Shown here: positions 3,984 through 49,598 of the stretch, one piece after another | How the letters are laid out: every line of letters starts with the position of its first letter | Position numbering within the stretch: the first letter of the stretch is position 1 | Origin: Minisyncoccota bacterium | GTDB taxonomy: Bacteria > Patescibacteriota > Minisyncoccia > Minisyncoccales > CG1-02-41-26 | Direction of reading: 5' to 3' | Length of the DNA: 64,000 bases | NCBI GenBank assembly: GCA_028718785.1 | Contig: JAQULB010000003.1 | Coordinates: 74,228 to 138,227, forward strand | The notes under the pieces: generated by a model | The model's input: the letters and a program-made list of their open reading frames with translations, nothing else | Told to the model about the DNA's origin: nothing | Database searches by the model: none | Made by a program: the position numbers and the translations under genes

Positions 3984-3993
3984 TATTTTTTTT

Positions 3994-8361: not shown

Positions 8362-8370
8362 TGGTATAAT
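8362..8370 (+). promoter_or_regulatory. Possible extended -10 promoter (TGgTATAAT) feeding element copy 1 and the HK gene
   Basis: TGGTATAAT directly abuts the TAAGTAATCC start of the element. No well-spaced -35 is present. Confidence 0.3.
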
Positions 8371-9816: not shown

Positions 9817-10194
9817 ATGAAAAAAATATTACTAATTGAAGATGAGGGAGCTTTGCAAAAAAGTTTAGGAGACACTTTCCGCGGAGCTGGTTTTGAGGTT
9901 TTGAGCGCTTTAGATGGTGAAGCAGGCGAAAGATTGGCAAAAAAAGAAAAGCCGGATTTGATTATTTTAGATTTAGTTTTGCCCCAAAAAGACGGGTTAG
10001 ATGTTTTTCAGGCATTAAAAGACGACCCAATAACAAAAGATATCCCAGTGGTTATTTTAACTAATCTTGAAAGAATAGAGCATGTGGAAAAAGTTTTAGA
10101 AATGGGCGCTAAAACATACTTGGTGAAATCAAACTATACCCTAAAAGAAATATTAGAAAAAGTTAACCAGGTCTTATCGAGTCAGAGCCAGTAG
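9817..10194 (+). CDS. Receiver-only response regulator (CheY-like)
   Basis: The sequence reads MKKILLIEDE...DLIILDLVLPQKDG...K, and there is no output domain. Confidence 0.85.
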   Translation: MKKILLIEDEGALQKSLGDTFRGAGFEVLSALDGEAGERLAKKEKPDLIILDLVLPQKDGLDVFQALKDDPITKDIPVVILTNLERIEHVEKVLEMGAKTYLVKSNYTLKEILEKVNQVLSSQSQ

Positions 10195-10429
10195 GCGATA
10201 GACGAGATTAGAGCTGGTTAACTCTGTGGAGTATTTTTAAATTTTTAGTAAAAAAATTTAAAACAGAAATTTTCTCTGAAAATTTCTACTCCACGGGGTG
10301 TAAGAATTCGTAAATTCATTTCATTCATTAACGACTTAAGGAATATCCCGATTAAACGCTTTATGAGAGAGCGTTTAACAGGATCTAAGAATTCGTAAAT
10401 TCATTTCATTCATTAACGACTTCTAAGAC
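10192..10429 (+). repeat. Intergenic hairpin-array element, copy 3 (variant H1, H3 duplicated)
   Basis: H2 arms are CTCTGTGGAGTA (10222-10233) and TACTCCACGGGGTG (10287-10300). TAAGAATTCGTAAATTCATTTCATTCATTAACGACTT occurs twice. The element ends CTTCTAAGAC-ATG. Confidence 0.8.
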
Positions 10430-12184
10430 ATGAAAGTTGAACCCCAACAATTAAAGGCCTTTATAGTAAGTTCTGGATTAGTTAACGAAAAGCAGTTTGA
10501 TAATTGTTTTAAAAAAGCGGAAAAATCCAAAGAAAGCGTTGAAGATGTTTTGATTGCTGACAAACTAATAACGCAAGCGGATTTAATTCGTTTAAAGGCC
10601 TATATTTTGGGCATTCCTTTTGTTAACTTAGAAAAAGATAAAATATTGGCTGATATTTTAAAAATTATTCCAGAGCCAATCGCCAGGACTCACAATATTG
10701 TGGCTTTTAGAAAGCAGGGCAAGAATTTGGAAGTGGCAATGCTTGATCCAGAAGATTTAAAAACAATAGAGTTTGTCAAAAAAAAGTCTGATTTAAAAAT
10801 ACTTCCCAGATTAACAAGTCCAGAAAGTATAAAAAGCGCTTTAAGCCAATATCAAGAAAGCTTGCAAGCTGAGTTTGGAGATATAATTAAGCAAGAAACA
10901 GGAGAAATAAAAAATATTCAAGACAGCGAGGGCGAAAATGAAGAAGCTGGGTCGGATTTGGAAAAGAAAGCTCAAGAAGTGCCAATAATTAAAATTGTTG
11001 ACACTTTATTAAAGCACGCCATTTTGCAAGGCGCTTCTGACATCCACATTGAACCAATGGAAAACGAGGTTTTGGTTAGATACAGAATAGACGGTATTTT
11101 GCATGATGCTATGACATTGCCAGTTATCGCCAAATCGGGAATTGTTGCTCGCATAAAAGTGTTAAGCAACTTAAAGCTTGATGAACACCGGCTTCCTCAA
11201 GATGGAAGGTTTAAAATTGAAACAAACGAATATAAATATTCGGTTAGGGTTTCGGTTTTGCCGGTTTTTAATGGTGAAAAAATAGTAATGCGACTTTTAC
11301 CCGAAACAACCAAAGGCCTTTCATTAGAACAGCTTGGCATAACCGGGGATGCATTAGAAAAAATTGAAGTAGCCCTAAATAGACCAGTTGGAATGGTTTT
11401 AGTTACAGGACCAACTGGCTCTGGTAAAACAACCACGCTTTATTCAATGATGGAGATATTAAACAAGCCGTTCGTTAATATTTCCACCGTGGAAGATCCA
11501 ATTGAATATAGAATGCCCAGAGTTAATCAAACGCAAGTAAATCCGCTTATTGGATTAACTTTTGCTTCAGGGCTTAGATCGTTATTGAGGCAAGACCCAA
11601 ATGTTATAATGGTTGGAGAAATTAGAGATAATGAAACCGCCAGTTTAGCTATCAACGCTTCCTTAACAGGGCATTTGGTGCTTTCTACTTTGCATACAAA
11701 TTCGGCCGCTGGGGCTATTCCTCGGCTTGTTGACATGAAAGTGGAACCATTTTTGTTGGCTTCAACTCTTAATGTGGTTATTGCTCAAAGATTAGTGAGG
11801 CGTTTAACAGAGGAAAAAGAAGAATATTATTTGCAGGATTCTGATTTAAAAAATCTTTCAAAATATTGCAACATAGAAACAATTAACAAGGTTTTAGAAG
11901 AAGAAAAAATATCAAAACCAGGTCAGTCAATCAAGGAAATTCCTTTTTATAAACCAAAAACAACAAAAGAAGCGCCAGACGGATATAAGGGCAGAGTGGG
12001 CATTTATGAAGTTTTAAATGTTGATGAGGCCATAAGATCGCTTTTACAAAAAGGATCATCGGCTGATGAAATACAAAACCAAGCGGTTTTATCTGGCATG
12101 AGACTAATGTTTGCTGATGGTTTTGCTAAAGCCGCTCGGGGGCAAACTAGCGTGGAAGAAATTTTAAGGGTGATAACAGAATAA
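10430..12184 (+). CDS. pilB: Type IV pilus assembly ATPase (GspE/PilB family), locus 1
   Basis: Walker A (GPTGSGKTTT), Asp and His boxes, and the RLPQDGRF motif are all present. Confidence 0.9.
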   Translation: MKVEPQQLKAFIVSSGLVNEKQFDNCFKKAEKSKESVEDVLIADKLITQADLIRLKAYILGIPFVNLEKDKILADILKIIPEPIARTHNIVAFRKQGKNLEVAMLDPEDLKTIEFVKKKSDLKILPRLTSPESIKSALSQYQESLQAEFGDIIKQETGEIKNIQDSEGENEEAGSDLEKKAQEVPIIKIVDTLLKHAILQGASDIHIEPMENEVLVRYRIDGILHDAMTLPVIAKSGIVARIKVLSNLKLDEHRLPQDGRFKIETNEYKYSVRVSVLPVFNGEKIVMRLLPETTKGLSLEQLGITGDALEKIEVALNRPVGMVLVTGPTGSGKTTTLYSMMEILNKPFVNISTVEDPIEYRMPRVNQTQVNPLIGLTFASGLRSLLRQDPNVIMVGEIRDNETASLAINASLTGHLVLSTLHTNSAAGAIPRLVDMKVEPFLLASTLNVVIAQRLVRRLTEEKEEYYLQDSDLKNLSKYCNIETINKVLEEEKISKPGQSIKEIPFYKPKTTKEAPDGYKGRVGIYEVLNVDEAIRSLLQKGSSADEIQNQAVLSGMRLMFADGFAKAARGQTSVEEILRVITE

Positions 12185-12409
12185 ATGAGCGTTAAAATTT
12201 TCAAGCTATCAAGCGCTGAAAATTTTATAACGCGAATTTACCCTGTGAAGTAATTTTAAATTTTAATAAATTCAAAATTAAAATTTGTAATCAAATTTTA
12301 CTTCACTGGGGTTTGATAAAAACCCTCATTAAAGGGGTCGCGCTTATACTCGGAGCCACCCCAGCTTTTCACGACTCTCAAGCTCGCCGTTCAAATAAGA
12401 ATTTCTAAT
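12182..12409 (+). repeat. Intergenic hairpin-array element, copy 4 (divergent H3)
   Basis: H1 is TAAATGAGCG...CGCGAATTTA. H2 arms are CCCTGTGAAGTA (12241-12252) and TACTTCACTGGGG (12299-12311). The element ends AAGAATTTCTAAT-ATG. Confidence 0.75.
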
Positions 12410-22332: not shown

Positions 22333-24017
22333 ATGGCAAAAAAAGATTATACAAATTGGGATAGAAAAGAGTTGATCAAAGAGATTGACCAGCTTCGCAA
22401 GCGCAAAAAATATGGGCTTGTTTGGGAAGAAAAACTAGAGGATATTGTCGAACAGTGCAAAACAAAATTACCAGTTTTAGAAGAAGTCAAAGACAAAGAA
22501 ATCAAAACGGATTCTGATAAACCGATGAATTTGTTAATTGAGGGCGACAATTATCATGCCCTTTCAGTTTTGAATTACACCCACAAAGGCAAAATTGATG
22601 TCATTTACATTGATCCACCATATAACACTGGTGCAAAAGATTGGAAATACAACAATGACTATGTAGATATAAATGATCAATGGCGACACAGTAAATGGTT
22701 GTCGTTTATGGAAAAAAGATTAAAACTATCCAAACATCTATTAAAAAGAAATGGTGTTTTGATTTGTACTATCGATAAAAACGAACAGGCAAACTTAGGA
22801 GTTTTATTACAAGAAATATTTAATAAAAAAGAAATCGTTTGTGTAACAATTATCCATAACCCCGGTGGAATTCAAGGGAAAAATTTTTCACACACTAATG
22901 AATTTGCTTATTTTATTCATCCTCTTAATGGTAATTATATTTCTACAATCGCAAGAGATGATGTTCCGCCGACAGCTTTTAGAGATTGGGGCAAACAAAG
23001 TTCAAAAAGAGAAGCTGCAAAAACCTGTTTTTATCCCATATATATAAAAGATGAAAATATAATTGGGTTCGGCGAAGTGTGCCTCGATAATTTTCATCCA
23101 AAAAGTTCAAATAACATAAAGAAAGACGGTATTATAGAAGTTTACCCAGTTGATCAAAAAGGAATTGAGCGCAAATGGCGCTTTGGAAGAGAAACTGTTG
23201 AGGATATAAAAGATGAGTTGATTTGTAAAAAGGTTAAAGGAGAATATCAAATTTTAAGAGAGAAGAAAGATTACAGGTGGAAAACTGTTTGGACTGAAAT
23301 CAAGTATAATGCCAATGTTTACGGAACAAAATTACTTAATAATATTATTGAGTCAAAATTTCCATATCCTAAGTCGGTATATGCAGTAATGGATTGTATA
23401 AAAGCAGTTATCCATGATAATAAGGATTCAACTATTCTGGATTTTTTGCTGGCTCTGGTACTACAGGTCATGCCGTCATGGAACTTAACGAGATTGATAA
23501 GGGAAAAAGGAAATTTATTTTATGCACTAATAATGAAGACAACAACGGTGAAGGTACAAAAATAGCTGATGATATGTGTTATCCGAGGATTGAAAATGTT
23601 ATCAAGGGTTACAAGGGATTACTTGACGGAAAGAAATATCAAGGATTGAAAGGTAATTTAAAATATTTTAGAACCGCTTTTGTTCCTGCCGATCCTACGG
23701 ATAAAAACAAAACAGCTCTTACAAAAAAAGCGACTGATATGCTTTGCGTGAAAGAAGATACTTTTGAAAAAGTTAAATCAAACGAGCAATATGTAATTTT
23801 CGGCAACAAAAAAAGATATACCGGAATTATTTATGATCATCAGGCGATTGATGATTTCAAAAAAGAAATTGCTAAAATTGACGGAAAATTCAGCGTCTAT
23901 GTGTTTTCGCTTGGCGATGATACTTTTGACGAGGAGTTTGAAGACATGAAAAGCAAGGTAAAATTATCACCAATACCAGAAGCAATATTGCGAGTATATC
24001 GCAGAATATTTAAATAA
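22333..24017 (+). pseudogene. mod: Type III R-M DNA methyltransferase (Mod), split by a -1 frameshift in a T6 tract
   Basis: ORF 22333..23565 has DVIYIDPPYNTG. The FxGxG motif (DFFAGSGTTGHAV) is only readable if T6 at 23442-23447 becomes T7, which joins it to ORF 23478..24017. Confidence 0.8.
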
Positions 24018-24028
24018 TTGGAAAAACT

Positions 24029-26242
24029 ATGCAACTAAAAGACTATCAAAATACGGCTATAAAAAAACTTCTCGCAAGAAGCAAGGAATTGCTGGCTCAA
24101 GGCGGAGAAAAGAAAATAATTTTCAAAGCCCCGACTGGTTCTGGCAAAACCATAATGACGGCGGAGTTTTTGAAGCAACTTATTGACGACAAAGAAATTA
24201 AAACTCCTTTATCGTTTATTTGGACGGCTCCAAGAAAATTACACACCCAAAGCAAGGGAAAACTGGAAAAGTATTACGAAGACACACGAGCGATTGAATG
24301 TTCTGATTTTGAGGATTTAGCCGACAAACAAATTGCGGAAAATGAAATTTTGTTCTTGAATTGGGAAAGCATAAACAAGAAAGATAAAAATACTATCGTC
24401 AAAGAAAATGAAAAAGAGTTTTATCTCAGCAAAATTGTTGAAAACACCAAAGACGAGGGACGAGAAATTGTTTTAATCATTGACGAAAGTCATCATCACG
24501 CCACAAGCGATATTTCTCAAGACTTAATCGCAGATATCGCCCCTCGGTTGACGATTGAAGTTTCAGCAACCCCAATTATTCAAAATCCAGATGAAATTGT
24601 CGCTGTGCCTTTGGAAGATGTAAAAATTGAAGGGATGATCAAAAAATCAGTCATCCTTAATCCGAATTTCAAAAACATTTTATCTGGTGATAGTTTAAGA
24701 ACTGCACTTGCTGACGGGACTGATGCAATGGTGCTTGAGGTAGCGTTAAAAAAGAGAGCTGAAATCGCAAAGGCATACCAAGACGCAGGAATAAATATCA
24801 ATCCTCTTTTACTTATTCAATTACCCGATAGAAAAACACAGCAGGAGGACTTGATCAAAGATGAAGTTGTGCGGATTTTGAAAGATAAGTACAAAATGAC
24901 TACCGAAAATGGCAAATTGGCGATTTACTTATCTGAAGAAAAAGAAAATCTGGAAAATATCGCGAAGAACGATCAAGAAACAGAAGTTTTAATTTTCAAA
25001 CAGGCAATCGCTTTGGGCTGGGATTGCCCAAGAGCGCAAATTCTTGTGCTTTTTAGAGATTGGAAGAGCCTGACATTTTCGGTCCAAACAGTCGGGCGGA
25101 TTATGCGTATGCCTGAACCTGACACTGGCCATTATAAACAAGAGATTTTGAATCACGGCTTTGTCTATACCAATCTGACCGATATAGAAATTAAAGAAGA
25201 CATGGCCAGAAATTATGTAACGATTTACACCAGCGATAGAATAGAAAATTACAAACCAATCAAATTGGAATCCGTTTATCGTTTGCGACAAAGAGAAAAA
25301 ACTCGTTTGAGTCCGCAGTTTATCAAGCTTTTTTTGCACGAAGCAAACGAATATGGCTTGGAAAAGAAAATAGAAACTAAAGGGCAAAAATTAGAGCTTT
25401 CTTTGATTTCTGACTATGAAGCAGAAAGCGTTGATAAATTGGCAAATGCAGAAATCAAAGGTGAAGCAAAGATTGATACCAAAAACGAAACCGATTTGCA
25501 AAAACTTTATGATTATTTTGTTCGCAATAATCTCACGCCTTTCTATCCCGAAGACCGATCAATCGGCAGAGTAAAAGAAGCGATTTATTACTTTTTCAAA
25601 ATGCGTTTAGGCATGGAGTATTCTGACCGCTTTTCTGAAATTATCAATATTGTTCTTAGCCCGAAAAATATCCAGCGTTTTGTAAATGTTATTGATAGCA
25701 CGAAAGAAAAATATATTGTCGAAACAAAAAAGCGAGATATTGTATTGCAAAAAACAGCCGACTGGGAATTGCCGGAAATGTTGAATTTTGGCGGAAATTA
25801 TACCGAGCTGAAAACAAAAAAATCGGCAATGCAACCGTTTTATTACGACAATAAATGGAAAACAGAAGAAGCGTTTATTAAATTTCTCGAAAAATCCGAT
25901 CAAGTTGAATGGTGGTATAAAAACGGAGATAGAGACGCAACATTTTTTGCAGTTTTTTACATTGAAAATGGTGAGCAAAAGCCGTTTTATGTAGATTTCA
26001 TTGTACGATTAAAAAATGGTTCTCTTGGACTGTTTGATACAAAAAGCGGAAACACAATAAAAGACGCAAGAGAGAAAAGCGACGGTTTGCAAGATTACTT
26101 GAAAAAACACAAAGAAATTTTCGGTGGAATAGTGGCAAACACCAATTCAAAAGATTTTTCAGGTCGTTGGATGTATTACAAAGAACAAGGTACCGAACTT
26201 AATCCCGATGATTTTTTAAATTGGAAATTGCTGGAAATTTAA
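24029..26242 (+). CDS. res: Type III restriction enzyme Res subunit (SF2 helicase-nuclease)
   Basis: Motif I (KAPTGSGKT) and motif II (IIDESHH) are present. The gene lies immediately downstream of mod. Confidence 0.8.
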   Translation: MQLKDYQNTAIKKLLARSKELLAQGGEKKIIFKAPTGSGKTIMTAEFLKQLIDDKEIKTPLSFIWTAPRKLHTQSKGKLEKYYEDTRAIECSDFEDLADKQIAENEILFLNWESINKKDKNTIVKENEKEFYLSKIVENTKDEGREIVLIIDESHHHATSDISQDLIADIAPRLTIEVSATPIIQNPDEIVAVPLEDVKIEGMIKKSVILNPNFKNILSGDSLRTALADGTDAMVLEVALKKRAEIAKAYQDAGININPLLLIQLPDRKTQQEDLIKDEVVRILKDKYKMTTENGKLAIYLSEEKENLENIAKNDQETEVLIFKQAIALGWDCPRAQILVLFRDWKSLTFSVQTVGRIMRMPEPDTGHYKQEILNHGFVYTNLTDIEIKEDMARNYVTIYTSDRIENYKPIKLESVYRLRQREKTRLSPQFIKLFLHEANEYGLEKKIETKGQKLELSLISDYEAESVDKLANAEIKGEAKIDTKNETDLQKLYDYFVRNNLTPFYPEDRSIGRVKEAIYYFFKMRLGMEYSDRFSEIINIVLSPKNIQRFVNVIDSTKEKYIVETKKRDIVLQKTADWELPEMLNFGGNYTELKTKKSAMQPFYYDNKWKTEEAFIKFLEKSDQVEWWYKNGDRDATFFAVFYIENGEQKPFYVDFIVRLKNGSLGLFDTKSGNTIKDAREKSDGLQDYLKKHKEIFGGIVANTNSKDFSGRWMYYKEQGTELNPDDFLNWKLLEI

Positions 26243-26257
26243 TGCCGTTAGTTTTAT

Positions 26258-28006
26258 ATGAGAATAACTAAACTAGTAATAAAAAATTATCGAAGTTTCG
26301 ACCCTGTGGGGCAAGAGATTTTATTTCCGGCTGTTCACTCTGCCCTTGTTGGAAAGAACAATGCAGGAAAAACTAACATTTTTAATGCGTTAAATTTGGT
26401 TTTGGGCAACAAAAATCCTGCTTATTTAAGATTTGAAGAAGATGACTATTTTGATTCTAGTCAGCCGATAGAAATACAAGTCTTAATTTCGGATATTACC
26501 GCAACAGACAAGAGTCAGATTTTTTCCATTCCAAACCTTACCAAACAACAGCAGGGGGCTTTAAATAGCAAAATCAGTGACGGTACGGCGGATATTACTT
26601 TTTTACTCAGAAAAAACTATGAGTATATTCCCCAAGATGATTCGGACGAAGAATCAGAAAGTAGTCAGGACGCTTTTGAAATAAAACTTTGGGGATTTAA
26701 TGTTTTTAGAAAGAAAGAAGATGCTAGAAAGTCAGTAATAAAAATGCTAATGGTTCCTGCAATAAGAGATTATCAAGATGAGCTTTTAGCTTCTAAATGG
26801 ACGGCATATGGTCAATTGATGAAAGAGGTTTTGGAAAACTCACCACATTATTCCGATATAAAAACTGATCTTTCAAATCTAAATATAAAAATCCAACAGG
26901 TTTTTGAAACAGAAAAAACAAAATTACTCGAAGGAGCACGAATAGTATCGTATGTTGATGATATAAGTTTTCAATTAACAAAAGATAATAGCCCGTCAGA
27001 ATTACTGAGAAATTTGGAAATATTTATAACAGAAGGGTCAAAAAAATTTAATATCGAGTACGTTGGGACAGGCACGCAGAGCGCAATAATTATTGGAATT
27101 TTAGAGTTGGCGTTAAAAAATAAGAGTTCAAAAATTAAACTTTTCTGCATTGAGGAGCCAGAAGCTTTTATACACCCTCACGGAATCAGATATTTAGGCT
27201 CACTGATAAAAAATATATCAAAAGATCAAAATACTCAGATTTTAGTATCAACACATTCCTTATCTCTAACGGCTAATTTTTCACCAAATGAAATTATCAG
27301 GGTAGACAAAATAGATGGGAAAACCGTAATCAAGCAGGATGTATCAATAAGCAATACTCATTTTAGAAGATTTATTCATCAGGATAATGCGGAAATATTT
27401 TTTAGCGACAGAGTTCTCTTTATTGAAGGATCAACAGAAAAACACTTGTTTGGAAATCTTGATAAGCTAACAAAGTTAAATCCAGTCGATCCAAATAGTA
27501 TAAATTGCAATTTTGATCGAATTAATCTTGGCGTAATCAAACTTGATTCTGTTGATTCAATTGTGAATTATGTAAAAATTGCAAAAGCGTTCGGCATTCC
27601 TTATTCAGCCATTGTTGATAGAGATTTTATTGATGATCCGAGCAAACAAAATAAATGTAAGGAGTTGTGCCTAGAGGTGGGGGCAATCTATCAGGTGTCA
27701 GATACAACAAAACTAATCAGCGATTTGAAATCAAAAAATATCGTCATAAATAGCAAGGGGGAGATTGAAGATATTTTTTCTAATCAAGAAATTGCAAATA
27801 TCACCGGCAAACAAATTGCAGATATTCAAGTAGTAAAAGCCAAACACGCCAAAATTAGCAATGCTTTCAAGGAAATATTTAGTGTTGGAAAAGCTGAGTA
27901 TGCAATTGTTATAGCCGATTTTTATTCCCAAAATGCTCAAACACATCCGCTTGATGACATTATTAGAAAGATTTACAATAACAACATCCTGAATATAAGT
28001 ATTTAA
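26258..28006 (+). CDS. OLD-family ATP-dependent nuclease (ABC-type ATPase + Toprim)
   Basis: Walker A is GKNNAGKTN and Walker B is LFCIEEPEAFIHP. The C-terminal Toprim-like motifs are LFIEGSTEKHLF and AIVDRDFID. Confidence 0.7.
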   Translation: MRITKLVIKNYRSFDPVGQEILFPAVHSALVGKNNAGKTNIFNALNLVLGNKNPAYLRFEEDDYFDSSQPIEIQVLISDITATDKSQIFSIPNLTKQQQGALNSKISDGTADITFLLRKNYEYIPQDDSDEESESSQDAFEIKLWGFNVFRKKEDARKSVIKMLMVPAIRDYQDELLASKWTAYGQLMKEVLENSPHYSDIKTDLSNLNIKIQQVFETEKTKLLEGARIVSYVDDISFQLTKDNSPSELLRNLEIFITEGSKKFNIEYVGTGTQSAIIIGILELALKNKSSKIKLFCIEEPEAFIHPHGIRYLGSLIKNISKDQNTQILVSTHSLSLTANFSPNEIIRVDKIDGKTVIKQDVSISNTHFRRFIHQDNAEIFFSDRVLFIEGSTEKHLFGNLDKLTKLNPVDPNSINCNFDRINLGVIKLDSVDSIVNYVKIAKAFGIPYSAIVDRDFIDDPSKQNKCKELCLEVGAIYQVSDTTKLISDLKSKNIVINSKGEIEDIFSNQEIANITGKQIADIQVVKAKHAKISNAFKEIFSVGKAEYAIVIADFYSQNAQTHPLDDIIRKIYNNNILNISI

Positions 28007-28112
28007 AAATCCGTCCCGCTGAAAAGTTTTGGGGGCGAAGCCCAAGTAGGCGGGCAAAAAGGAAGGGGGATTTGGGGTCAAGTTTTTAAGTTAAGGATAA
28101 TAATTTCAAAAT

Positions 28113-28709
28113 ATGGCAGGCCATTTGTTTAACATAAATTTTTGGGAAGCGATAAAAAGTATTTTTGGAGGAGCTTTTCAGGTTGTTTGGCTTTTTATAA
28201 AATCGTTTTGGTGGGTTTTTTTGGTTTTAATTTTAATTAGGGTTATACCGTGGCTTGTTTCAGCTAAAATTAGGAGAATGAAAAATGCAAAAAGATTTAA
28301 AGCTGGAGAAGCTTGGCGGTCTGACAGGGATTTAATTTATTGGTTGAGGGGAATGAGTCCAACGGAGTTTGAAGAATATATTGCAGATTTGTTTTCAAAA
28401 TTAGGATATAAAACAAAGGTTACTGGTGGTTCGCATGATGGAGGAGTAGATGTGATAGCTGAAAAAGATGGCATAGCGCATTATATTCAATGTAAAAAAT
28501 ACTTCTCAAAACACGAGGTTGGCTCACCAGAGGTTCGTAATTTTTATGGCGCTATTGCTGATCATTTGGCCAAAGGCAAGGGTTATTTTATAACTACAAA
28601 CAAATTTACGCTTGAAGCCGAGCAATTTGCCCAAGATAAGCCAATAGAACTAATTGATAGCCATAGGCTTGTTGACTATATTCATTTGGCCGAAAAGGCC
28701 AAAATATAG
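28113..28709 (+). CDS. Membrane-anchored Mrr-like (PD-(D/E)xK) restriction endonuclease domain protein
   Basis: The N-terminal TM segment is VVWLFIKSFWWVFLVLILIRVIPWLV. The Mrr_cat-like core is GGSHDGGVDVIAEKDG..HYIQCKKY. Confidence 0.65.
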   Translation: MAGHLFNINFWEAIKSIFGGAFQVVWLFIKSFWWVFLVLILIRVIPWLVSAKIRRMKNAKRFKAGEAWRSDRDLIYWLRGMSPTEFEEYIADLFSKLGYKTKVTGGSHDGGVDVIAEKDGIAHYIQCKKYFSKHEVGSPEVRNFYGAIADHLAKGKGYFITTNKFTLEAEQFAQDKPIELIDSHRLVDYIHLAEKAKI

Positions 28710-29636: not shown

Positions 29637-30692
29637 ATGGGTATATTTACAAAAAATTATTTAGGGGTTGATATTGGAGCCTCAAGCATAAAAGTTGTTG
29701 AGGTTTCGGTTTATGGTAAAAAGAAAAAACTGGAAAACTATATGGAATTTAAAATGCCTTTGTCTAGCCAGTCCCTTAAAACATTCCACAGAGAAAGCGC
29801 GGCCTTGTTGAGCAATGAGGTTTCGGAGATATTGCAGGCCATTTTAAGAAAAGCGAAAATTAAAGAAAAAAAAGTTTCTTTATCTTTGCCAGATTTTTCT
29901 ACTTTTTTTACAACATTCTCCATACCCCCAATGACAGAAACAGAAGTTCCTCAAGCCGTGGAATTTGAAGCAAAACATTACATCCCCTTGCCCTTAAACG
30001 AGGTTACTTTTGACTGGCAGATTATTGATAAAGAAGAAAGCATTTCAGGTTTGAAAAGAAGAATTTTGCTTGTGGCCATCCCCAACGCTGTTTTGCAAAA
30101 TTATCAAAGAGTGGCTTCGTTGTGCGGGCTTGAAATAGCGGGAATGGAAGCGGAAGTTTTTAGCTTGATAAGGTCTTCTTGGCCAGGCGGGAAATGCGAT
30201 TTTTTGCCTGTTTGCATGGTGGATTTTGGCTGGAAAAGCACAACTGTTAGCATTGTGGAAAAAAAGAAAGTGATATCAAGCTTTAGTTTTGATATTTCAA
30301 GCATTGCTTTAACAAAAGATTTGGCTTTGGCGTTGGGAATTCCGTTAGAAGAAGCAGAAAAATTAAAAACTCTTCATGGATTAGACCCTCAAAAACCAGA
30401 AGTTGCCAAAGTGCTTTTAGATAAAATTAACTTGCTTACAATGGAAATTGACAAAATTTGTGATGATTTTTTTCAAGCTACTAACCGAAGAGTGGACAAT
30501 CTTGTTTTGTCTGGGGGAACAGCCAATCTTTTTGGATTAAAAGAATATTTGTCTGCCAGAATTAAAAAAAGTGTATCAACAGCCATGCCTTTTTCCACCC
30601 TTAGTTATCCTGCGGTTTTAGAGCAAAGGTTGCTTAAGATTGGTCCTTCTTTTGCTATTGCTTTGGGGGCGGCTTTAATGTCAGCTGATTAA
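29637..30692 (+). CDS. pilM: PilM (actin-like), locus 2
   Basis: The 351-aa protein has a YLGVDIGASSIKVVEV start and a PilM-like layout, and is followed by pilN/O-like genes. Confidence 0.75.
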   Translation: MGIFTKNYLGVDIGASSIKVVEVSVYGKKKKLENYMEFKMPLSSQSLKTFHRESAALLSNEVSEILQAILRKAKIKEKKVSLSLPDFSTFFTTFSIPPMTETEVPQAVEFEAKHYIPLPLNEVTFDWQIIDKEESISGLKRRILLVAIPNAVLQNYQRVASLCGLEIAGMEAEVFSLIRSSWPGGKCDFLPVCMVDFGWKSTTVSIVEKKKVISSFSFDISSIALTKDLALALGIPLEEAEKLKTLHGLDPQKPEVAKVLLDKINLLTMEIDKICDDFFQATNRRVDNLVLSGGTANLFGLKEYLSARIKKSVSTAMPFSTLSYPAVLEQRLLKIGPSFAIALGAALMSAD

Positions 30693-31027
30693 ATGAGCGC
30701 CCAAGAGCGCGAGCCGTTAGGCGAAGCGTGATTGGTTGGGCGAATTTAACCCCGTGAAGTAAAATTTAATTTTACTAAATTAAATTTTAATCTTAAATTT
30801 TTATTTAAAAATTTAAGATTACTTCACAGGGGTGTGGATAGAAATATAAACAGACCCCAGTTAAGTAGCTCGCTCATCGCTCGCACTTAACGGGGTATAA
30901 GAATTCGTAAATTCATAAGGAAATCCCGATTAACGCTCGCTAAAATCACTCGCGTTAACGGGATGCAAGAACTTCTAAATTTCATAGCTCGCTAATCGCT
31001 CACTATTCAATTAAGAATTTCTAACAC
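30690..31027 (+). repeat. Intergenic hairpin-array element, copy 5 (longest, five hairpins)
   Basis: H1 is TAAATGAGCGCCCAA...TTGGGCGAATTTAA. H2 arms are at 30750-30761 and 30820-30834. Extra hairpins are CCCCAGTTAAGT...ACTTAACGGGG and ATCCCGATTAACGC...GCGTTAACGGGAT. The element ends AAGAATTTCTAACAC-ATG. Confidence 0.85.
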
Positions 31028-31582
31028 ATGTCAGATAAATTTGATGTTTTAAATATAATTCCAAAGCCCAAGATTGTTTTGCCTTTTTGGGTTAATCCTT
31101 TGGTTTTGGCTTCTGGAGTTATTTTGTTGATCATGACTGGGCTTTTTGTTTTTTATCATTTTCAAGCATTGTCATGGGAAAGTAAAGCAAAGGTTGAAGA
31201 AAGCAACTATCTTGCCCTTGCAACGCCAGAAAATAAAGCCATAGAGGAAAAAGCTGGAAAAATTTCCCAGCAGTTAGAAAAATTTTTTCAAGCGTTTGAA
31301 AACCATAAATTTTCTTATATTTTATTTAATTTTTTAAAGGATAATTGTCATCCCAATGTTAGTTTTTCAAGTTTAAATTTTAATTCAAACTCCGGAAAAG
31401 TTTCTTTGGCTGGTCAAACCAATAATTATAATAGTTTGGGTGAGCAGATAGCGGTTTTAAAAAGCGTAAAAGAAATAAGCGCTTTAGAGGTTTCAGATAT
31501 TGTTTTAGACAAAGAGGGGAATGTTACTTTTAGGTTAAATTTTATAGTTGACCCAAATTTTTTCAAAAATCAAAACCAATGA
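31028..31582 (+). CDS. pilN: PilN-like bitopic membrane protein, locus 2
   Basis: It has a single TM segment. The call rests mainly on synteny. Confidence 0.5.
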   Translation: MSDKFDVLNIIPKPKIVLPFWVNPLVLASGVILLIMTGLFVFYHFQALSWESKAKVEESNYLALATPENKAIEEKAGKISQQLEKFFQAFENHKFSYILFNFLKDNCHPNVSFSSLNFNSNSGKVSLAGQTNNYNSLGEQIAVLKSVKEISALEVSDIVLDKEGNVTFRLNFIVDPNFFKNQNQ

Positions 31583-32124
31583 AAAGAATTTTTGCCATTC
31601 CAGTTTTAGCATTAGCGTCTTTTGTGGTGTTTCTTTATGCTGTTTTGCCTCAAGTTTCAGCTGTCAATAGAGCAAAGGAGAATTTTTTAAAAACCGAGAA
31701 ACAGGTAAACGATCGCCAAAAATATTTTCAAGACCTAAAAAGTTCTCTTGAAGAAATAAGCGCCTATCAAGACACTATAGAAAAAATAGAATCTGCTTTG
31801 CCAGGAGAAGTTTTTTTAGCTTCATTGATTGAATTTTTTAATCAAAAAGCCAATAATAGCGGTTTGATTTTGAAATCTCTTGCTCCAACAGCAGGACCTA
31901 CGGGTTATGAAGAAGGAAACAGCGATCCAATCCAACAGGCAAAAAATTATCCAGCTCAATATTTTATAATGACCTTAAATGGAAATGCGTCTTCGTTTGA
32001 AAGCTTTTTAAAAGATATTGAAACTTCAGCTCGGTTGGTTGATGTTGAAAGTATTTCTTTGCAACAACAAGGTTCAAAAGAGATTTCCTCTGATATTAAT
32101 ATTTTAGTCAAGGTTTATTATTAA
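31579..32124 (+). CDS. pilO: PilO-like bitopic membrane protein, locus 2
   Basis: It has a single TM segment plus a coiled-coil, and its start overlaps the upstream gene. Confidence 0.5.
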   Translation: MKRIFAIPVLALASFVVFLYAVLPQVSAVNRAKENFLKTEKQVNDRQKYFQDLKSSLEEISAYQDTIEKIESALPGEVFLASLIEFFNQKANNSGLILKSLAPTAGPTGYEEGNSDPIQQAKNYPAQYFIMTLNGNASSFESFLKDIETSARLVDVESISLQQQGSKEISSDINILVKVYY

Positions 32125-32186
32125 ATGACGCCCCGTAAAAACAAGTCAGTAGGCGAAGTTTAAGCGGTTGGCGGAAGTTAACCTTT
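32122..32186 (+). repeat. Intergenic element, short copy (H1-type module only)
   Basis: TAAATGACGCCCCGTAAAAACAAGTCAGTAGGCGAAGTTTAAGCGG shares TAAATGA and CAGTAGGCGAAG with the other copies. Confidence 0.55.
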
Positions 32187-35336: not shown

Positions 35337-36407
35337 ATGGAATACCAAAAAGTTTTAAAAAATATTTTGGAATCAGCAATTACCCAAGGGGCCTCGGATA
35401 TTCACATTGTGGTGGGGCATCCTTTTATTTTAAGAATTTCTGGCGAACTAATAAATCAACCCAAAACGCCCGTTGTTTCTCCAGAAGATGCTATGGGATT
35501 GGCGTTGGCTTTAATGGGCCAAGAAAGAAAAGACCGGCTTTTAAAAGAAAGAGAAATTGATTTTGCTTATAGTTTTTCCGATAAAGCCAGATTTAGAGTT
35601 AACATTTTTTTTCAAATGGGTTATGTGAGCATGGCTTTAAGGTTGATTAACTCTCAAATACGAACAACTGAAGAGCTTAATTTGCCTTTAACTATAAAAA
35701 ATTTTGCTCAAGCTGAACATGGGCTTGTTTTGATAACCGGATCTTCCTCTCAAGGAAAATCAACAACTTTAGCCAGCTTGGTTGATGATATTAACCACAA
35801 CAGAGGAGAGCATATTATAACAATTGAAGACCCAATAGAATATATTTTTAAAGATGACCTTTCTTTAATAGAACAAAGAGAGGTGTCTCAAGACACTTTA
35901 AGTTTTTCTAGCGCTTTAAGAGCGGCTTTGCGCGAAGATCCGGATGTTATTATGGTGGGGGAGATGAGGGACTTAGAAACAATTTCCACAACCATAACAG
36001 CGGCTGAAACCGGGCATTTGGTTTTTGCCACCTTGCATACAAATTCGGCTGCCCAAACAATTCACCGCATAATAGATGTTTTTCCTTCAGACCAGCAAGA
36101 TCAAGTGAGATCTCAGCTGGCAGTTTCTTTGCTGGGAGTTGTTTCTCAAAAACTCATACCGTCTGAGGAAAAAGGGTTTTTGCCAGCTTGCGAAGTTTTA
36201 ATTGCCACATCTGGCATAAGCAACTTAATAAGAGAAAACAAAATTCACGAGATACCTTCCATTATTGAAACTTCTGGACAAATGGGAATGTGCACTTTAA
36301 ATAAAAGCTTGGTTGAACTGGTTCGAGGAGGATTGATTTCCAAAGAATTGGCTATTGTTCACTCGCTTAACCCAGAAGATTTAAAGATTAGATTAAGCAG
36401 ATTATAA
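35337..36407 (+). CDS. pilT: PilT-family retraction ATPase
   Basis: The 356-aa protein has GASDIHI, Walker A (GSSSQGKST), GEMRD and a His box (TLHTNSAAQT). Confidence 0.85.
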   Translation: MEYQKVLKNILESAITQGASDIHIVVGHPFILRISGELINQPKTPVVSPEDAMGLALALMGQERKDRLLKEREIDFAYSFSDKARFRVNIFFQMGYVSMALRLINSQIRTTEELNLPLTIKNFAQAEHGLVLITGSSSQGKSTTLASLVDDINHNRGEHIITIEDPIEYIFKDDLSLIEQREVSQDTLSFSSALRAALREDPDVIMVGEMRDLETISTTITAAETGHLVFATLHTNSAAQTIHRIIDVFPSDQQDQVRSQLAVSLLGVVSQKLIPSEEKGFLPACEVLIATSGISNLIRENKIHEIPSIIETSGQMGMCTLNKSLVELVRGGLISKELAIVHSLNPEDLKIRLSRL

Positions 36408-36628
36408 GTAATCCGTTAATGAAAGCGAGCTTTTGAGCGAAGCTTGAATTTACGGATTACTTACCCCGTGGAGTATAAATTTGCTTTGCAAATTTATATT
36501 TTAAATTCTTATTAAAATCGTCTAATAATTTTAATAAGAATTTAAAATTACTCCACAGGGTGTAAGAACTCGTAAAATCCGCCGCAAATTTTACGAAATA
36601 AATTAGCGGCGAATTAACGATTTCTAAC
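36405..36628 (+). repeat. Intergenic hairpin-array element, copy 6
   Basis: The first 66 nt are identical to copy 1. H2 arms are at 36464-36475 and 36549-36562. H3 has interleaved stems CGTAAAAT/ATTTTACG and CGCCGC/GCGGCG. The element ends TTAACGATTTCTAAC-ATG. Confidence 0.85.
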
Positions 36629-37858
36629 ATGAGATTTTTTTATCAATCAAGGTCAAAAATTGGGGAGTTAAAAAAAGGTATTGTTGAGGCCGAGTCAAAA
36701 AAAGCGGCCCTGGAAGCTTTGGAAAAGTATGGTCTTTATGTTACCTCTTTAAAACAAGAACCCACCACAAAGCTTAAAAAGGATATAAACATTAAAATCC
36801 CTTTTTTAAAAGAGGTGCCCCAAAAAGAAATCGTGGCTTTCACAAGGCAGTTATCGGTAATGTTAAGGTCGGCAATTCCGCCCCTACAGGCCATAAAGGC
36901 CCAGGCCAGCCAAATAAAAAATCAAAGGTTTCAAGCAATTCTTTGGAAAATGGTTCAAAGCATAGAAATGGGAACACCCTTAAGCCAGGCCCTTGCTTTA
37001 TCTCCTCAAGTTTTTAATCAGTTTTTTATTAGTATGGTAAAGTCCGGAGAAGCGACTGGAAAAGTGGCTGACTCTTTGTTTTATTTAGCAGATCATTTAG
37101 AAGAAGAATATAATTTTAATCAAAAGGTTTTTGGGGCCATGATTTACCCCATTTTTATTTTGTTTGCTTTAACAGCAGCTTTCTTTTTGGCAATATTTTT
37201 TATTGTTCCCAAGTTAAGAGAAATTTTGGAATCTTTTACAGGCAATCTTCCTTGGGCCACAAAGTTAATTATTGGCTTGTCGGATTTTATAAAAGCCGGG
37301 GGCTGGATTGGTTTTTTGCTTGTTTTTGGGGCAATTGCCGCTTTGCCTGTAGTTTTAAAAAAGAATAAAGAAGCAAAAATCGCTTATGATTCGTTAATTT
37401 TAAAAGTGCCTGTTTTGGGAAAATTTTTTGCAAAGGTTTATCTTGTTAGATTCACCGAAAATTTGTCTGTTTTGATTTCTGCTGGCTTGCCAATTAATCA
37501 AGCATTAAACATTACTTATGATATTGTGGGCAACACAGTGTATCAAAAAATTATCAAAGAGATAAGCGATCGGGTGGCTAAAGGAGAAAAAATAAGCGCG
37601 GTGGTTTTTGAAAAGCCAAATCAAATTCCCCCCTTTGTTTCTCAAATGATTTCCACAGGAGAGGAAACTGGAAAGTTAGACGAAACTTTAATGGATGCGG
37701 TGAGGTTTTATCGCCAAGAAATAGAACGCACCACTGCTAATTTAACAACAATCATAGAGCCGGTCTTGATTTTAATTATTGGGGTGGCTATTGCGATTTT
37801 TGCGGTTTCAATTTTTATACCGCTTTTCAAAATAGGCATGGGCGGAATGACTGGATAA
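36629..37858 (+). CDS. pilC: Type IV pilus platform protein (GspF/PilC family), locus 2
   Basis: Duplicated GspF domains are present (SGEATGK, TGEETGKL), with three TM segments. Confidence 0.85.
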   Translation: MRFFYQSRSKIGELKKGIVEAESKKAALEALEKYGLYVTSLKQEPTTKLKKDINIKIPFLKEVPQKEIVAFTRQLSVMLRSAIPPLQAIKAQASQIKNQRFQAILWKMVQSIEMGTPLSQALALSPQVFNQFFISMVKSGEATGKVADSLFYLADHLEEEYNFNQKVFGAMIYPIFILFALTAAFFLAIFFIVPKLREILESFTGNLPWATKLIIGLSDFIKAGGWIGFLLVFGAIAALPVVLKKNKEAKIAYDSLILKVPVLGKFFAKVYLVRFTENLSVLISAGLPINQALNITYDIVGNTVYQKIIKEISDRVAKGEKISAVVFEKPNQIPPFVSQMISTGEETGKLDETLMDAVRFYRQEIERTTANLTTIIEPVLILIIGVAIAIFAVSIFIPLFKIGMGGMTG

Positions 37859-40499: not shown

Positions 40500-40687
40500 G
40501 TAAGTCCTCCGTTAGCAAGGGCGAGGCGGTTAGCCAAAGCCAAAGCTTACGGAGGACTTACCCCGTGAAGTAGAAATTTGCTCTGCAAATTTCAATTTTA
40601 AATTTTTTATTAAAAATTTAAAATTACTTCACAGGGTTGCTTAATAAATCACTTCACGGGGTATTTAACTTTTTAACTCAATCTTTT
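40497..40687 (+). repeat. Intergenic hairpin-array element, copy 7
   Basis: H1 is TAAGTAAGTCCTCCGT...ACGGAGGACTTA. H2 arms are at 40561-40572 and 40625-40636, with an extra half-arm CACTTCACGGGGTA at 40650-40663. Confidence 0.8.
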
Positions 40688-41267: not shown

Positions 41268-41639
41268 ATGATTAAACAAAGAAAATCCACTTCTATTTCT
41301 TCAACCAACAAAGAAAAAGGCATAGCTTTATATATGGTTATTGTGTTGCTTTCAGTTTTTATGGCAGTGGTTTTAACTTTAACAAGTGTTTCGTTGAGTC
41401 AAATAAGGGTTTCTTGGCAAGCCGGGGATTCGTCTAGGGCCTTTGGAGCGGCAGATAGCGGTGTTGAGCAAGCTCTTTACAACATCAGGAAGCTTGGTTC
41501 TTTTGAAGACATTACCACTCCGGTGGTTTTATCTAATGGATCAAGTTATACTGTGGATATTACCATGGTTGGGGAGGGGGCCACGATTCAATCAAAAGGA
41601 ATTTTTAAAAATACCAGAAGAAGCATAGAAGCAAAATAT

Positions 41640-41642
<3 letters not shown>
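41268..41642 (+). CDS. PilX-like minor pilin/hypothetical
   Basis: The ATG at 41268 has GGGAG 8 nt upstream. It has a hydrophobic segment (GIALYMVIVLLSVFMAVVL). Confidence 0.55.
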
Positions 41643-44867
<3,225 letters not shown>

Positions 44868-45046: not shown

Positions 45047-45742
45047 ATGCCTTATATATTTTTAGATGAAAGCGGACAATTTAGTAAACATAACGGTGAA
45101 AAATTTTTTGTTGTTGGTTCTTTCACTGTTGGTAATTGGCGACGGACAGAAAGACAATTTTATTCTTGGCAAAGGCTTAAATTTCCTAAAAAACTTTGCT
45201 CTCAACCAGAAATTAAATTTTCGGGAATTAAAATTACTGAAAAACTTCGATTAAGGACCTTAAAATTTATTGCTGATCTTGATGTTAGAATTAACTATTC
45301 ATTTTTATCAAAGCAAAACATTCCTGATGACTACAAACAAAAAGATAAACTCCAAAGTGGGCTTTTATATACAAATATTATTGGCGAGACGTTAGAAATG
45401 TATCTACCAGTTACTGATTTAGAATTTAGGGTATTTTGCGACGAACGTCACCTAAAGGGCATTAAGCGTTCGGAGTTTAAACGACTTCTTGTTGCCAGGT
45501 TATTACCCCAATTGCCGAAGAATTCCATCATTCAGATTGAGATGGTTAGTTCGGATCAAAACGCAAACATTCAGATTGCCGATTGGATAGCTGGCGCTTT
45601 AGCGTGGTCATTAGAAGGTAAGCCACTTGGCAAAGATTGTTGCGCCATTTTAAAAAACAATATTTTAAAAGAGGGTAAAGAGTTATTTCAAAATTATTGG
45701 GAAAATAAATTTTTAAAACAAAAATCTCAATCAAGCGATTGA
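45047..45742 (+). CDS. DUF3800-family protein
   Basis: The N-terminal YIFLDESG and C-terminal IQIADWIAGA motifs are typical of DUF3800. Confidence 0.6.
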   Translation: MPYIFLDESGQFSKHNGEKFFVVGSFTVGNWRRTERQFYSWQRLKFPKKLCSQPEIKFSGIKITEKLRLRTLKFIADLDVRINYSFLSKQNIPDDYKQKDKLQSGLLYTNIIGETLEMYLPVTDLEFRVFCDERHLKGIKRSEFKRLLVARLLPQLPKNSIIQIEMVSSDQNANIQIADWIAGALAWSLEGKPLGKDCCAILKNNILKEGKELFQNYWENKFLKQKSQSSD

Positions 45743-45907
45743 GAACTTTGTTAGAAGTAGCGTCTTAAAGAATGGTTGTCCACAGCTTAAGTCCCGGATT
45801 CTCCGAGGGAACACCATGGCATCCTCTAAGCTATTATTGCGTACTTCTAATAAGAAGTATAACACATAATTTTTAAAAGTAAAGTCAAGAGGATTTATCC
45901 ACAGAGG

Positions 45908-49100: not shown

Positions 49101-49396
49101 AGTTTGGAGGCCAGAGGTTTGGAGAAATGGAAGTTTGGGCCTTGGAATCGTATGGGGCGGCTCATACTTTGCAGGAAATGTTAACCATTAAATCTGACGA
49201 TGTGCCAGGCAGAGTTGCCACATACGAAACAATTTTAAAAGGAGAGGCGGTAAAAAAGCCAAATGTTCCAGCCAGTTTTAATCTTTTGGTTTCTGAGTTA
49301 AAATCGCTTGGTTTGAACATTGAAATAAAAGGCGTTTTTACAGACGAGGATGAAGAAGAAACATATAGCCATAGAGGAGACAAAAAAGAAGCATAA
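46175..49396 (+). CDS. rpoB: DNA-directed RNA polymerase beta subunit
   Basis: The 1073-aa protein carries conserved blocks (FGEMEVWALE, GRHGNKG, NMQRQAVP). Confidence 0.97.
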   Translation: MQTKSFSKSKLSFHLPYLLQMQKDSWNQLWEKELQELFEEMFPIRDYTGKQFELGFVSFKLEKPKYKSGDEAKENDDTFDASMRVRFSLKNLKTGEIKEQEVFLADFPLMTENGIFIINGVERVVIPQLIRSSGVFFTARPFRGKNYFGAKIIPTRGAWLEFDTDASGFLGVKINRQRKVAATTLLKALGLWERAKIEKEFASIDKGEIKYIEKTLSRDNTTSQEDSFVEIYKKIRPGDLVSPDAAKDLVLNMFCNFQRYDLSKVGRWKFWERLEENVEKKPRENIGKEERVLTLQDVILVIKEIIRLNNDPEAKPDQIDHLGNRRIRNLAELAAGRLRVGFMRMERIIKDRMSTLDAATITPSQIINPKPMMAVIQEFFSASQFSQFMDGENPLAELEHKRRLTATGPGGLTRERAGFEVRDVQPSHYGRICPIQTPEGQNVGLINHLASFAKVNTFGFLETPYFKVKNGRITDDTFYLTATQEEKCNITHAGVDFNEKGMMVEDEVEARKKGEPRKISKMEVDYIDVSSKQPLSVATSLIPFLQNDDANRALMGSNMQRQAVPLVMPQAPLVGTGTERNVAIDSGETIIAPESGVITEVDASQIKLKTKSETLTFNLRIFQRRNQYTATHQRPIVKKGDQVKKGDVLADGAAIDQGRLALGRNIFVAFLPFRGCNYEDAIVVSERLVRDDVFTSIHIEDFTCDVRDTKLGPELTTCDIPNVSEEKLKDLDEEGVVRVGAEVGPNDILVGKISPKGEKVLTAEERLLKAIFGEKAKEVKDTSMRMEHGKRGRIVKVKIFSRDKGDKLEPGVLKRIKVEVAQIRKVKVGDKLAGRHGNKGIVGRVIPVEEMPYMEDGTPVDIVLNPLGVVSRMNIGQILETHLGWAAHELNYLAITPSLLGATEKDIKEELVKAGLPESGQIKLYDGKTGQPFPTNITVGYMYMMKLIHMVEDKIHMRSIGPYSLITQQPLGGKAQFGGQRFGEMEVWALESYGAAHTLQEMLTIKSDDVPGRVATYETILKGEAVKKPNVPASFNLLVSELKSLGLNIEIKGVFTDEDEEETYSHRGDKKEA

Positions 49397-49598
49397 ATGA
49401 GTTGTTGGTGAAAGCGAGCTGTTAAGCGAAGCTTGAGCCTATAACGAATTTACCCTGTGAAGTAAATTTAAATTTTTAGCAAAAAATTTAAATTAGAAAT
49501 TTGCTTCACAAATTTCTACTTCACGGGGTGTAAGTATTCGTAAAATTTTTCCGCAAATTTTACGAACAAAATTAGCGGAAAAATTAACGACTACTAAC
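49394..49598 (+). repeat. Intergenic hairpin-array element, copy 9 (between rpoB and rpoC)
   Basis: H1 is TAAATGAGTTGTTGG...CCTATAACGAATTTA. H2 arms are CCCTGTGAAGTA (49453-49464) and TACTTCACGGGGTG (49517-49530). H3 has interleaved stems. The element ends TTAACGACTACTAAC-ATG. Confidence 0.85.

Follow-up and report, generated by a model that had tools for sequence, protein, structure and literature searches.

A mosaic intergenic repeat of CPR bacteria in which nested hairpins probably flip independently

The spacer between rpoB and rpoC in a Minisyncoccota genome holds a 76-base palindrome, which we call H2 (49453-49528; rpoB stop codon 49394-49396, rpoC start 49599), and an earlier note on this DNA described the copies of this palindrome in the window (the whole 64,000-nucleotide stretch of contig JAQULB010000003.1 that was analysed) as two mirror-image arm forms set between constant flanks. 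The locus raises the question of whether these mirror forms arose by inversion, by point mutation or in some other way. Our preferred answer, to which we assign a probability of about 0.68, is that H2 belongs to a mosaic REPIN/MITE-like repeat in which nested hairpins flip independently and recurrently, and in which base pair 4 of the outer stem is kept imperfect.

H2 is a Y-like nested palindrome, in which a 12-bp outer stem encloses two AT-rich sub-hairpins, a (in general AAATTTG-loop-CAAATTT) and b (TTTTAAATTTTT-loop-AAAAATTTAAAA). The focal copy, on the plus strand, reads CCCTGTGAAGTA - AATTTAAATTTTT AGCA AAAAATTTAAATT - A - GAAATTTG CTTCA CAAATTTC - TACTTCACGGGG. Its arms (5', 49453-49464; 3', 49517-49528) form an inverted repeat that matches the arm motif and have a U.G wobble at base pair 4 (T49456 with G49525); sub-hairpin b (49465-49494) has a perfect, 100% complementary 13-bp AT stem and the loop AGCA (49478-49481), and sub-hairpin a (49496-49516, assigned by folding) has the loop CTTCA. 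H2 is the middle part of a composite, H1-H2-H3, that measures ~200-330 nt, spans the distance between the stop codon of one gene and the ATG of the next, and folds as three abutting hairpins without a linker (-77 to -90 kcal/mol, z-scores -9 to -12.5). At rpoB-rpoC, the 59-nt hairpin H1 (49394-49452 on the plus strand; fold, and covariance model R1 at 68.6 bits, E 1e-15) begins with the TAA that is the rpoB stop codon and has an apex of the form GCGAG-loop-GCGAAGC with GA/GAA internal loops. H3 (49529-49599 on the plus strand; TGTAAG...CTAACA, by folding) ends on the A of the rpoC ATG (49599-49601; ORF 49599-53264). The flanks once described as constant are indeed the same from copy to copy, but they are not neutral surroundings, being the hairpins H1 and H3; the end coordinate first given for H2, 49530, took in 2 nt of the next hairpin. 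The H2 5' arm also contains, for example at 49457-49465, a two-codon mini-ORF (GTG-AAG-TAA; GTG-GAG-TAG in the related genome bin JAUSHZ01) that is probably coincidental, the genome being without Shine-Dalgarno usage.

The arm motif CCCYGTGRAGTA matches the two strands of the window 19 times, against 0.32 expected by chance. One match, at 19426, sits within tRNA-His and was set aside as fortuitous; the others are both arms of nine hairpins and one lone 5' arm. The window holds ten copies of the element. H2 ranges from 68 to 146 nt with an AT-rich interior, and H1 is 59-60 nt long. Motif and sequence checks located every sequence that the earlier note had quoted, and its two arm forms do share the flanks TTA / core / TGTAAG. 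Arms of the form CCCCGTGRAGTA...TACTYCACAGGG occur at 8429-8567, 9640-9715, 30750-30831, 36464-36560 and 40561-40636, with the 5' arm only at 41698, and arms of the form CCCTGTGRAGTA...TACTYCACGGGG at 49453-49528; a CTCTG 5' arm is found at 10222 and a CACTGGG 3' arm at 12310. The flanks depart from the common pattern in the copies at 12241, 30750 and 40561, each of which has another downstream module.

The first eight copies lie on the plus strand. Copy 1 (8370-8630) consists of H1 (8370-8428), directly 3' of the extended -10 box TGGTATAAT, H2 (8429-8567) with C.A arms and a ~70-nt insert within sub-hairpin a followed by b, and H3 up to the ATG at 8628; its interior is the reverse complement of that in the orthologous locus L004. 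Copy 2 (9554-9819) has an apical insertion in H1, a C.A-armed H2 (9640-9715) of order a-b with the loops CTCTG in a and TACT in b, and a long H3 to the ATG at 9817. In copy 3 (10163-10432), H1 (10163-10221) is followed by H2 (10222-10298; arms CTCT.../...CGGGG, order b-a, b loop AGTA, a loop CTCTG) and a duplicated H3 that reaches the ATG at 10430. Copy 4 (12182-12310) pairs a variant H1, a weak R1 match, with an H2 (12241-12310) of order b-a in which base pair 4 is a T.T mismatch, and its downstream module is unlike the usual H3. Copy 5 (30689-31030) comprises H1 (30689-30748), H2 (30750-30831, C.A arms), a second hairpin type that we call H2b (CCCCAGTTAAGT...ACTTAACGGGG) 3' of H2, and H3 modules to the ATG at 31028. 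Copy 6 (36405-36631) has H1 at 36405-36463, a C.A-armed H2 at 36464-36560 of order a-b with b enlarged, and H3 to the ATG at 36629; its interior is inverted relative to the orthologous locus L019. Copy 7 (40501-40661) contains H1 (40501-40560), H2 (40561-40636; C.A arms, order a-b) and an additional partial 3' arm, CACTTCACGGGG, at 40650-40661, and copy 8 (41639-41709) is truncated after H1 (41639-41697) and the H2 5' arm alone (41698-41709), shortly 5' of the ligA start at 41746. The ninth is the focal copy. The tenth (60679-60860), on the minus strand between ssb and rpsR, has its H2 at 60732-60799, with order b-a and with arms (CCCTGTTAAATA/TATTTAACGGGG) that contain TAAATA/TATTTA and form U.G at base pair 4, and its H3 runs down to the S18 ATG at 60679. 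A solitary H1 on the plus strand (32121-32180; R1 51.6 bits) occupies a 62-nt spacer without H2 or H3, and in a related minus-strand composite between rpsF and ssb (61379-61595) an H2b-type hairpin replaces H2 and H3 ends TTCTAATATG.

Three further features of this repeat landscape deserve mention. H2b (CCCCAGTTAAGTAG...CACTTAACGGGG), found at 30854-30895 (plus) and 61424-61560 (minus), may follow or replace H2; in JAUSHZ01 it commonly lies 3' of an H2 version with one sub-hairpin, and its orientation is constant in the twelve or so copies seen. The ~70-nt non-palindromic insert in sub-hairpin a is conserved (window 8441-8529, plus strand; L004 1066-1207; L018, L022 and L029), bears a promoter-like TTGATA-N17-TAATTT, and is inverted between orthologous loci. 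An apparent defence island at 22333-28709, encoding an N6/N4 DNA methylase, a ResIII helicase, an OLD-family ATPase/TOPRIM nuclease and an Mrr endonuclease, contains no repeat copies, unlike the core operons that flank it.

To describe the mirror variants, we scored four asymmetric markers in flank-fixed orientation: the state of arm base pair 4 (C.A or U.G), the sub-hairpin order (a-b or b-a), the a loop (pyrimidine-rich, such as CTCTG, or purine-rich, CAGAG) and the b loop (TACT/TGCT or AGTA/AGCA). If the whole core had inverted as one unit, two haplotypes would be expected, yet among 32 fully scorable copies from all genomes 12 of the 16 possible combinations occur. Five of the six marker pairs are unlinked, and arm state and order are linked weakly (Fisher p = 0.036). 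The variants therefore make up a combinatorial set produced by independent flips of each nested palindrome. The earlier note had recognized that simple inversion of the whole core is not enough to account for them; its two forms are two of a larger set, four independent binary markers having been seen in at least 12 combinations. Its observation that sub-hairpin order swaps with arm form holds within the window (3 versus 3 copies) but fails across JAUSHZ01, where order b-a accompanies C.A arms in 15 of 19 copies. Likewise, in the window one loop is complemented and the other is not, as it had stated: b appears as TACT or AGTA, and a is always pyrimidine-rich.

Loop sequences come in pairs that are exact reverse complements (AGTA/TACT, AGCA/TGCT and CAGAG/CTCTG), no intermediates are seen, and in three pairs of paralogues all 76 nt are alike save for AGTA<->TACT. 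We then compared five orthologous spacers between the window and JAUSHZ01 or PFAV01, and all five showed at least one flip. In the spacer 5' of the histidine-kinase gene, both genomes have identical arms, and the 115-nt interior matches at 78% as its reverse complement versus 61% in forward orientation (the a loop was not scored here). The spacer 5' of the T2SSF gene has an identical arm with both the order and the a loop inverted, and in the spacer 5' of the T2SSE gene, as in the spacer compared between the window and PFAV01, arm and order are the same and the a loop is flipped. At rpoB-rpoC, the order is the same and both the arm and the a loop differ. The proposal that interiors are swapped, beyond what point-mutation variants would give, is thus upheld by the reverse-complemented 115-nt orthologue interior and the exact multi-base loop complements.

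Marker states are not random within a genome: all six scored window copies have a pyrimidine-rich a loop, and JAUSHZ01 copies are mostly b-a with a purine-rich a loop. Such bias implies selection, founder effects or gene conversion among the copies. Copies in PFAV01 vary in a/b order, and a large insert in b keeps one orientation, a pattern that needs two events or another mechanism. Either replacement of a whole module or ectopic gene conversion with a paralogue as donor would look like a flip in situ, and module replacement is observed 5' of ssb.

The arms themselves tell a different part of the story. Across 46 cores from five genomes, base pair 4 is C.A in 31 and T.G in 12, with A.G, T.T and Watson-Crick in one core each; the sole core with a Watson-Crick base pair 4, in PFAV01, bears an A.C mismatch at base pair 5. 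The remaining arm pairs are Watson-Crick in at least 44 of the 46. Base pair 8 covaries (G-C 26, A-T 20) and is Watson-Crick in every core, in agreement with the earlier observation that co-changes in the arms preserve pairing. Because base pair 4 is non-Watson-Crick in 45 of 46 cores, the imperfection itself is conserved, apparently through selection, to judge from this comparison of sequences. A single transition can turn C-G or U-A into two states only, C.A and U.G, and these are necessarily each other's reverse complements. The arm forms had been described as exact reverse complements, which is correct for the sequences; their asymmetry is limited to base pair 4, so the arm mirror by itself is no proof of inversion. 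Since the asymmetric TG beside the 3' arm never changes side, a flip of the whole core needs breakpoints within the outermost ACCC/GGGT, and two transitions under selection explain the change between C.A and U.G as well as inversion does. The asymmetry between G.U and A.C was also considered as a test of which H2 strand is functional and proved uninformative, the sense strand being mostly C.A.

We propose that small inversions have recurred within the element and gave rise to the mirror variants, each inversion being driven by a short inverted repeat that the element itself carries. Flips of the 4-nt b loop would involve the 13-bp b stem, flips of the 3-5-nt a loop the 8-9-bp a stem, and flips of the whole interior, with a change in the a/b order, the 12-bp outer stem; base pair 4 would switch state either through an inversion that breaks within the outermost 4 bp or through a pair of transitions. 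The likely mechanism, as in plastid spacers, would be intramolecular template switching or recombination at a hairpin or cruciform. In plastid spacers, hairpin-flanked small inversions recur and both orientations are energetically equal (PMC6824564). An explanation by point mutation only, with the arm forms as substitution variants one transition from C-G/T-A and nothing inverted, is a real contender that still falls short of even odds. It suits the arms well: one transition in a Watson-Crick pair gives either C.A or T.G, further point variants occur at or beside base pair 4 (A.G, T.T and the PFAV01 A.C at base pair 5), and the TG flanking the 3' arm stays on one side. For the interior it fails, and is already refuted there, by loops that are exact multi-base reverse complements without intermediates and by the 115-nt interior that is reverse-complemented between orthologues.

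H2 might instead be an independent small mobile palindrome that inserted either way into an existing H1/H3 scaffold, or that gene conversion copied in from paralogues in antiparallel alignment. The modular make-up of the composites speaks for this idea, with H1 alone at 32121 and H2b in place of H2 at orthologous spacers (the HK-RR spacer in L004, and 5' of ssb), but two-way insertion predicts that all four markers are completely linked, whereas 12 of 16 combinations occur and orthologous loci can share an arm state yet have an inverted interior; we consider it improbable. We regard programmed inversion, in which a site-specific recombinase would operate an inverton-like switch that regulates the downstream gene, as very unlikely. 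A segment bounded by inverted repeats is indeed present in both orientations, and the promoter-like TTGATA-N17-TAATTT match in the insert of the copy at 8429 faces the gene in the window and away from it in the orthologue. Against such a switch stand the three nested flip levels with repeats down to 8 bp, the 3-5-nt loops without regulatory content, a Pfam scan of the 55 main window ORFs that returned no invertase or transposase, and promoter-like matches that are not enriched (18 vs 12.5 +/- 3.8). That the variants are assembly or sequencing artefacts at palindromes has next to no probability: the sources are all short-read metagenome bins, but the inverted repeats measure 8-13 bp, well below the k-mer lengths used in assembly, which leaves an assembler no way to flip the interior, and both states of each marker occur in several independent assemblies. 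Under independent flipping, the preferred reading, the locus would be a clean natural bacterial example of combinatorial flip-flop at three nested palindrome levels in a multi-copy element, and would call for caution with alignments and phylogenies built from such repeats.

H1 and H3 behave differently from H2. H1 starts with TAA, usually the upstream stop codon, and in other copies lies directly 3' of the extended -10 box. Its apex with the GA/GAA internal loops is conserved. With the H1 covariance model, nine strong copies are found in the window, each on the same strand as the gene that follows it, and 49 matches in relatives, with double-sided compensatory changes in 15 of 20 pairs and 88% paired cells versus 27-42% in slid controls. 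H3 begins TGTAAG and ends ...TTCTAAC, and its final paired base is the A of an ATG that opens a real ORF in about 50 copies, including those of rpoC, ribosomal proteins, pilus genes, ssb and rpsR. Aligned globally with the reverse complement of H3, H1 scores 23, compared to 4.2 +/- 1.8 for shuffles and 4 for the forward alignment, and the H1 covariance model also matches H3 positions on the opposite strand. The kinship was settled by this pairwise alignment with shuffles and by the covariance model; a MAFFT alignment was unconvincing. As read from these comparisons, H3 is a diverged inverted copy of H1, which makes the composite a large pseudo-palindrome, H1-H2-rcH1, whose outer arms, TAAGTAATCCGTTA... 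and ...TAACGATTTCTAACA, are inverted repeats.

All composites are co-oriented with the downstream ORF, those of the minus-strand S6-SSB-S18 operon included. H1 and H3 are as palindromic as H2, yet they are never flipped relative to the gene, while H2 flips freely. This difference argues for a strand-specific constraint on H1 and H3, and implies that they are constrained on the transcribed strand. H2, seen in every orientation, must have either an orientation-independent role, one of shape such as a helix or three-way junction, or none. The comparison between H2 (any orientation, base pair 4 never perfect) and H1/H3 (never flipped) thereby maps where strand-specific constraint lies.

The H2-plus-flank pattern was found in four other bins in a scan of one genome per species: JAUSHZ01, PFAV01 (Candidatus Gribaldobacteria), JAZDKU01 and CAYVXQ01. 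These related bins of the candidate phyla radiation (CPR), all Gribaldobacteria-like, hold dozens more copies; JAUSHZ01, which matches the window in gene order at roughly 70-85% nucleotide identity, has them at many loci, including between nearly all ribosomal-protein genes. H1, H2 and H3 were absent from 80 metagenomic loci of relatives identified by a scan with the RpoB C-terminus (65-87% amino-acid identity), so the family is narrow. As far as these sequence scans reach, the repeat occurs only within one small clade of CPR bacteria that are Gribaldobacteria-like. At gathering score, Rfam reports only tRNAs and DUF3800-V in the window and no element family, and scans of the elements at permissive E-values gave only generic hairpin (miRNA-like) noise. 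An exact-protein look-up of the response regulator that is flanked by two elements returned no record.

Some junctions are filled in one genome and empty in another. Between pilM and the next gene, the window has a 335-nt element (30693-31027) where JAUSHZ01 has only TAATAGTTATG (L019 ~5960-6070), and another junction is element-filled in JAUSHZ01 only. The ftsK-to-mur junction was rejected as another such site, because what JAUSHZ01 has in addition there is a small gene and not an element. TAA stands at both ends of the element, and an empty TAA-TAGTT-ATG can be set beside a filled TAA-(element)-TAA-CAC-ATG, although the divergence between the genomes precludes a clear-cut assignment. Promoter-proximal copies read TATAA/TAA...TAA/CATG, which together with the terminal TAAs suggests that the element inserted at TAA into junctions that had been leaderless or had a stop codon close to the next start. 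Such insertion would explain the exact stop-to-start boundaries without invoking function, and does not explain the fixed orientation relative to the gene. As a separate observation, the extended -10 box (TGnTATAAT) abuts base 1 of H1 at 8362-8370 (plus) in the window and also in L004, L013, L025 and L006; with the element and one TAA removed, it would stand about 6 nt from the ATG, suggesting that the ancestral genes were leaderless. At the 3' end of the JAUSHZ01 mur ligase gene (L029 rc, ~3981-4050), the ORF runs into H1 and stops at an apex TAA, so that the C-terminus changes from ...KNYSN* in the window orthologue to ...NNPLLKASR*.

Among known systems, the composite most resembles REPIN, BIME and MITE elements. 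With the REPINs and REP-BIMEs of proteobacteria (PMC3116915, PMC3337134, PMC3733652) it shares high-copy intergenic imperfect palindromes, two inverted hairpin units around a spacer that form a larger hairpin (H3 being close to the reverse complement of H1), mosaics of differing units with conserved stem imperfections, and a position mostly between co-directional genes, where it is probably transcribed. It lacks the asymmetric terminal GTAG or CGTC that defines REP sequences (PMC3733652); the GTAG of some cores is symmetric only (GTAG...CTAC). REPs are 20-40-bp GC-rich stems, whereas the units here are 59-76 nt and AT-rich, and REP/REPIN systems have a RAYT (Y1 transposase); Pfam scans of the 55 main window ORFs revealed no transposase, invertase, recombinase or Y1_Tnp domain. 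The gene-fixed orientation, the exact stop-to-start span and the central Y-shaped nested palindrome also set the element apart from REPINs. Like MITEs and the Neisseria Correia repeat-enclosed elements (CREE; PMC2649163, PMC10969869), it is of the order of ~100-250 bp with long terminal inverted repeats, and as with CREE it is intergenic, co-transcribed, and present or absent between related genomes, with a possible short target duplication (TA in CREE, TAA here). CREE have no sequence similarity to it and insert both ways; in contrast to MITEs, each terminal repeat here forms a hairpin of its own, and the element has no known partner transposase. Small inversions of plastid spacers (PMC6824564, PMC12371153) offer the closest parallel to the flips, with short loops that are exact reverse complements among close relatives, bounding inverted repeats of 8-20 bp, homoplasy, and equal stability of the orientations; the plastid cases are single-copy organelle loci, whereas here three nested levels occur in a multi-copy bacterial repeat. 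Invertons and phase-variable promoters likewise have inverted-repeat-bounded DNA in both orientations, but no recombinase was found in the window, and the flipped units are tiny, nested and without clear regulatory cargo.

What the composite might do is a more speculative matter. A role for H2 as intrinsic terminator or promoter was rejected, since consensus matches show no enrichment relative to shuffled sequences (5 vs 3.6 for terminators, 18 vs 12.5 for promoters), and the GGAGG in the H1 3' arm was ruled out as a Shine-Dalgarno site, the genome being essentially without such motifs upstream of genes. In a model that we hold with low confidence, the composite would be a domesticated leader or punctuation cassette of an organism without Shine-Dalgarno usage, serving as a portable coupling switch or, alternatively, through H2 as a processing site. 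Because H3 is the reverse complement of H1, a 1:2 / 2:3 / 3:4 coupling switch is possible: when a ribosome terminates at the TAA of the H1 5' arm, the 3' arm of H1 would become free and could pair with the H3 5' arm and extend H2, so that the H3 3' arm would be released and the abutting AUG exposed. In partition-function folds, blocking the first 15 nt, which imitates a ribosome at termination, raised the unpaired probability at -12..+3 from 0.44 to 0.62, with the rise in 25 of 28 copies (Wilcoxon p = 5e-5, for copies that are not independent); with the H2 arm blocked, it fell to 0.31. Also cited for the cassette are the fixed orientation, the ribosomal-gene spacers in JAUSHZ01, the genome without Shine-Dalgarno and the AUG at the foot of H3. 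In the alternative, H2 with its obligatory imperfect base pair 4 may be an orientation-independent RNase III or RNase Y site, and cleavage there would divide operon transcripts into units with H1 and H3 as end caps; the window contains an RNase Y gene (5456-6985), and Correia element hairpins, which are bound and cleaved by RNase III (PMC2649163), offer a model for H2. Structured RNA of 200-330 nt fills stop-to-start junctions even in ribosomal-protein, rpoBC and pilus operons, and in a reduced CPR genome without Shine-Dalgarno, reliance on a portable structured leader for coupling or processing becomes testable.

The window also contains structured sequences outside this family. Another palindromic repeat, GTCATTCTGAGCC...GGCGAAGAATC...CTCAGAATGAC, recurs in L006, L008, L018 and L028, with a partial copy at ~55640-55690 on the minus strand. 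A DUF3800-V RNA (Rfam RF02964, 74.5 bits; 45753-45848, minus strand) lies directly downstream of a DUF3800-domain gene (45047-45742). Finally, a tRNA-like sequence at 53507-53594 on the plus strand, ending ...CCTCCGCACCA, scores 41.3 bits as tRNA-Sec, below the gathering threshold of 47, and was missed both by ARAGORN and by the tRNA model at its gathering threshold; a strong terminator-like hairpin lies 3' of it.
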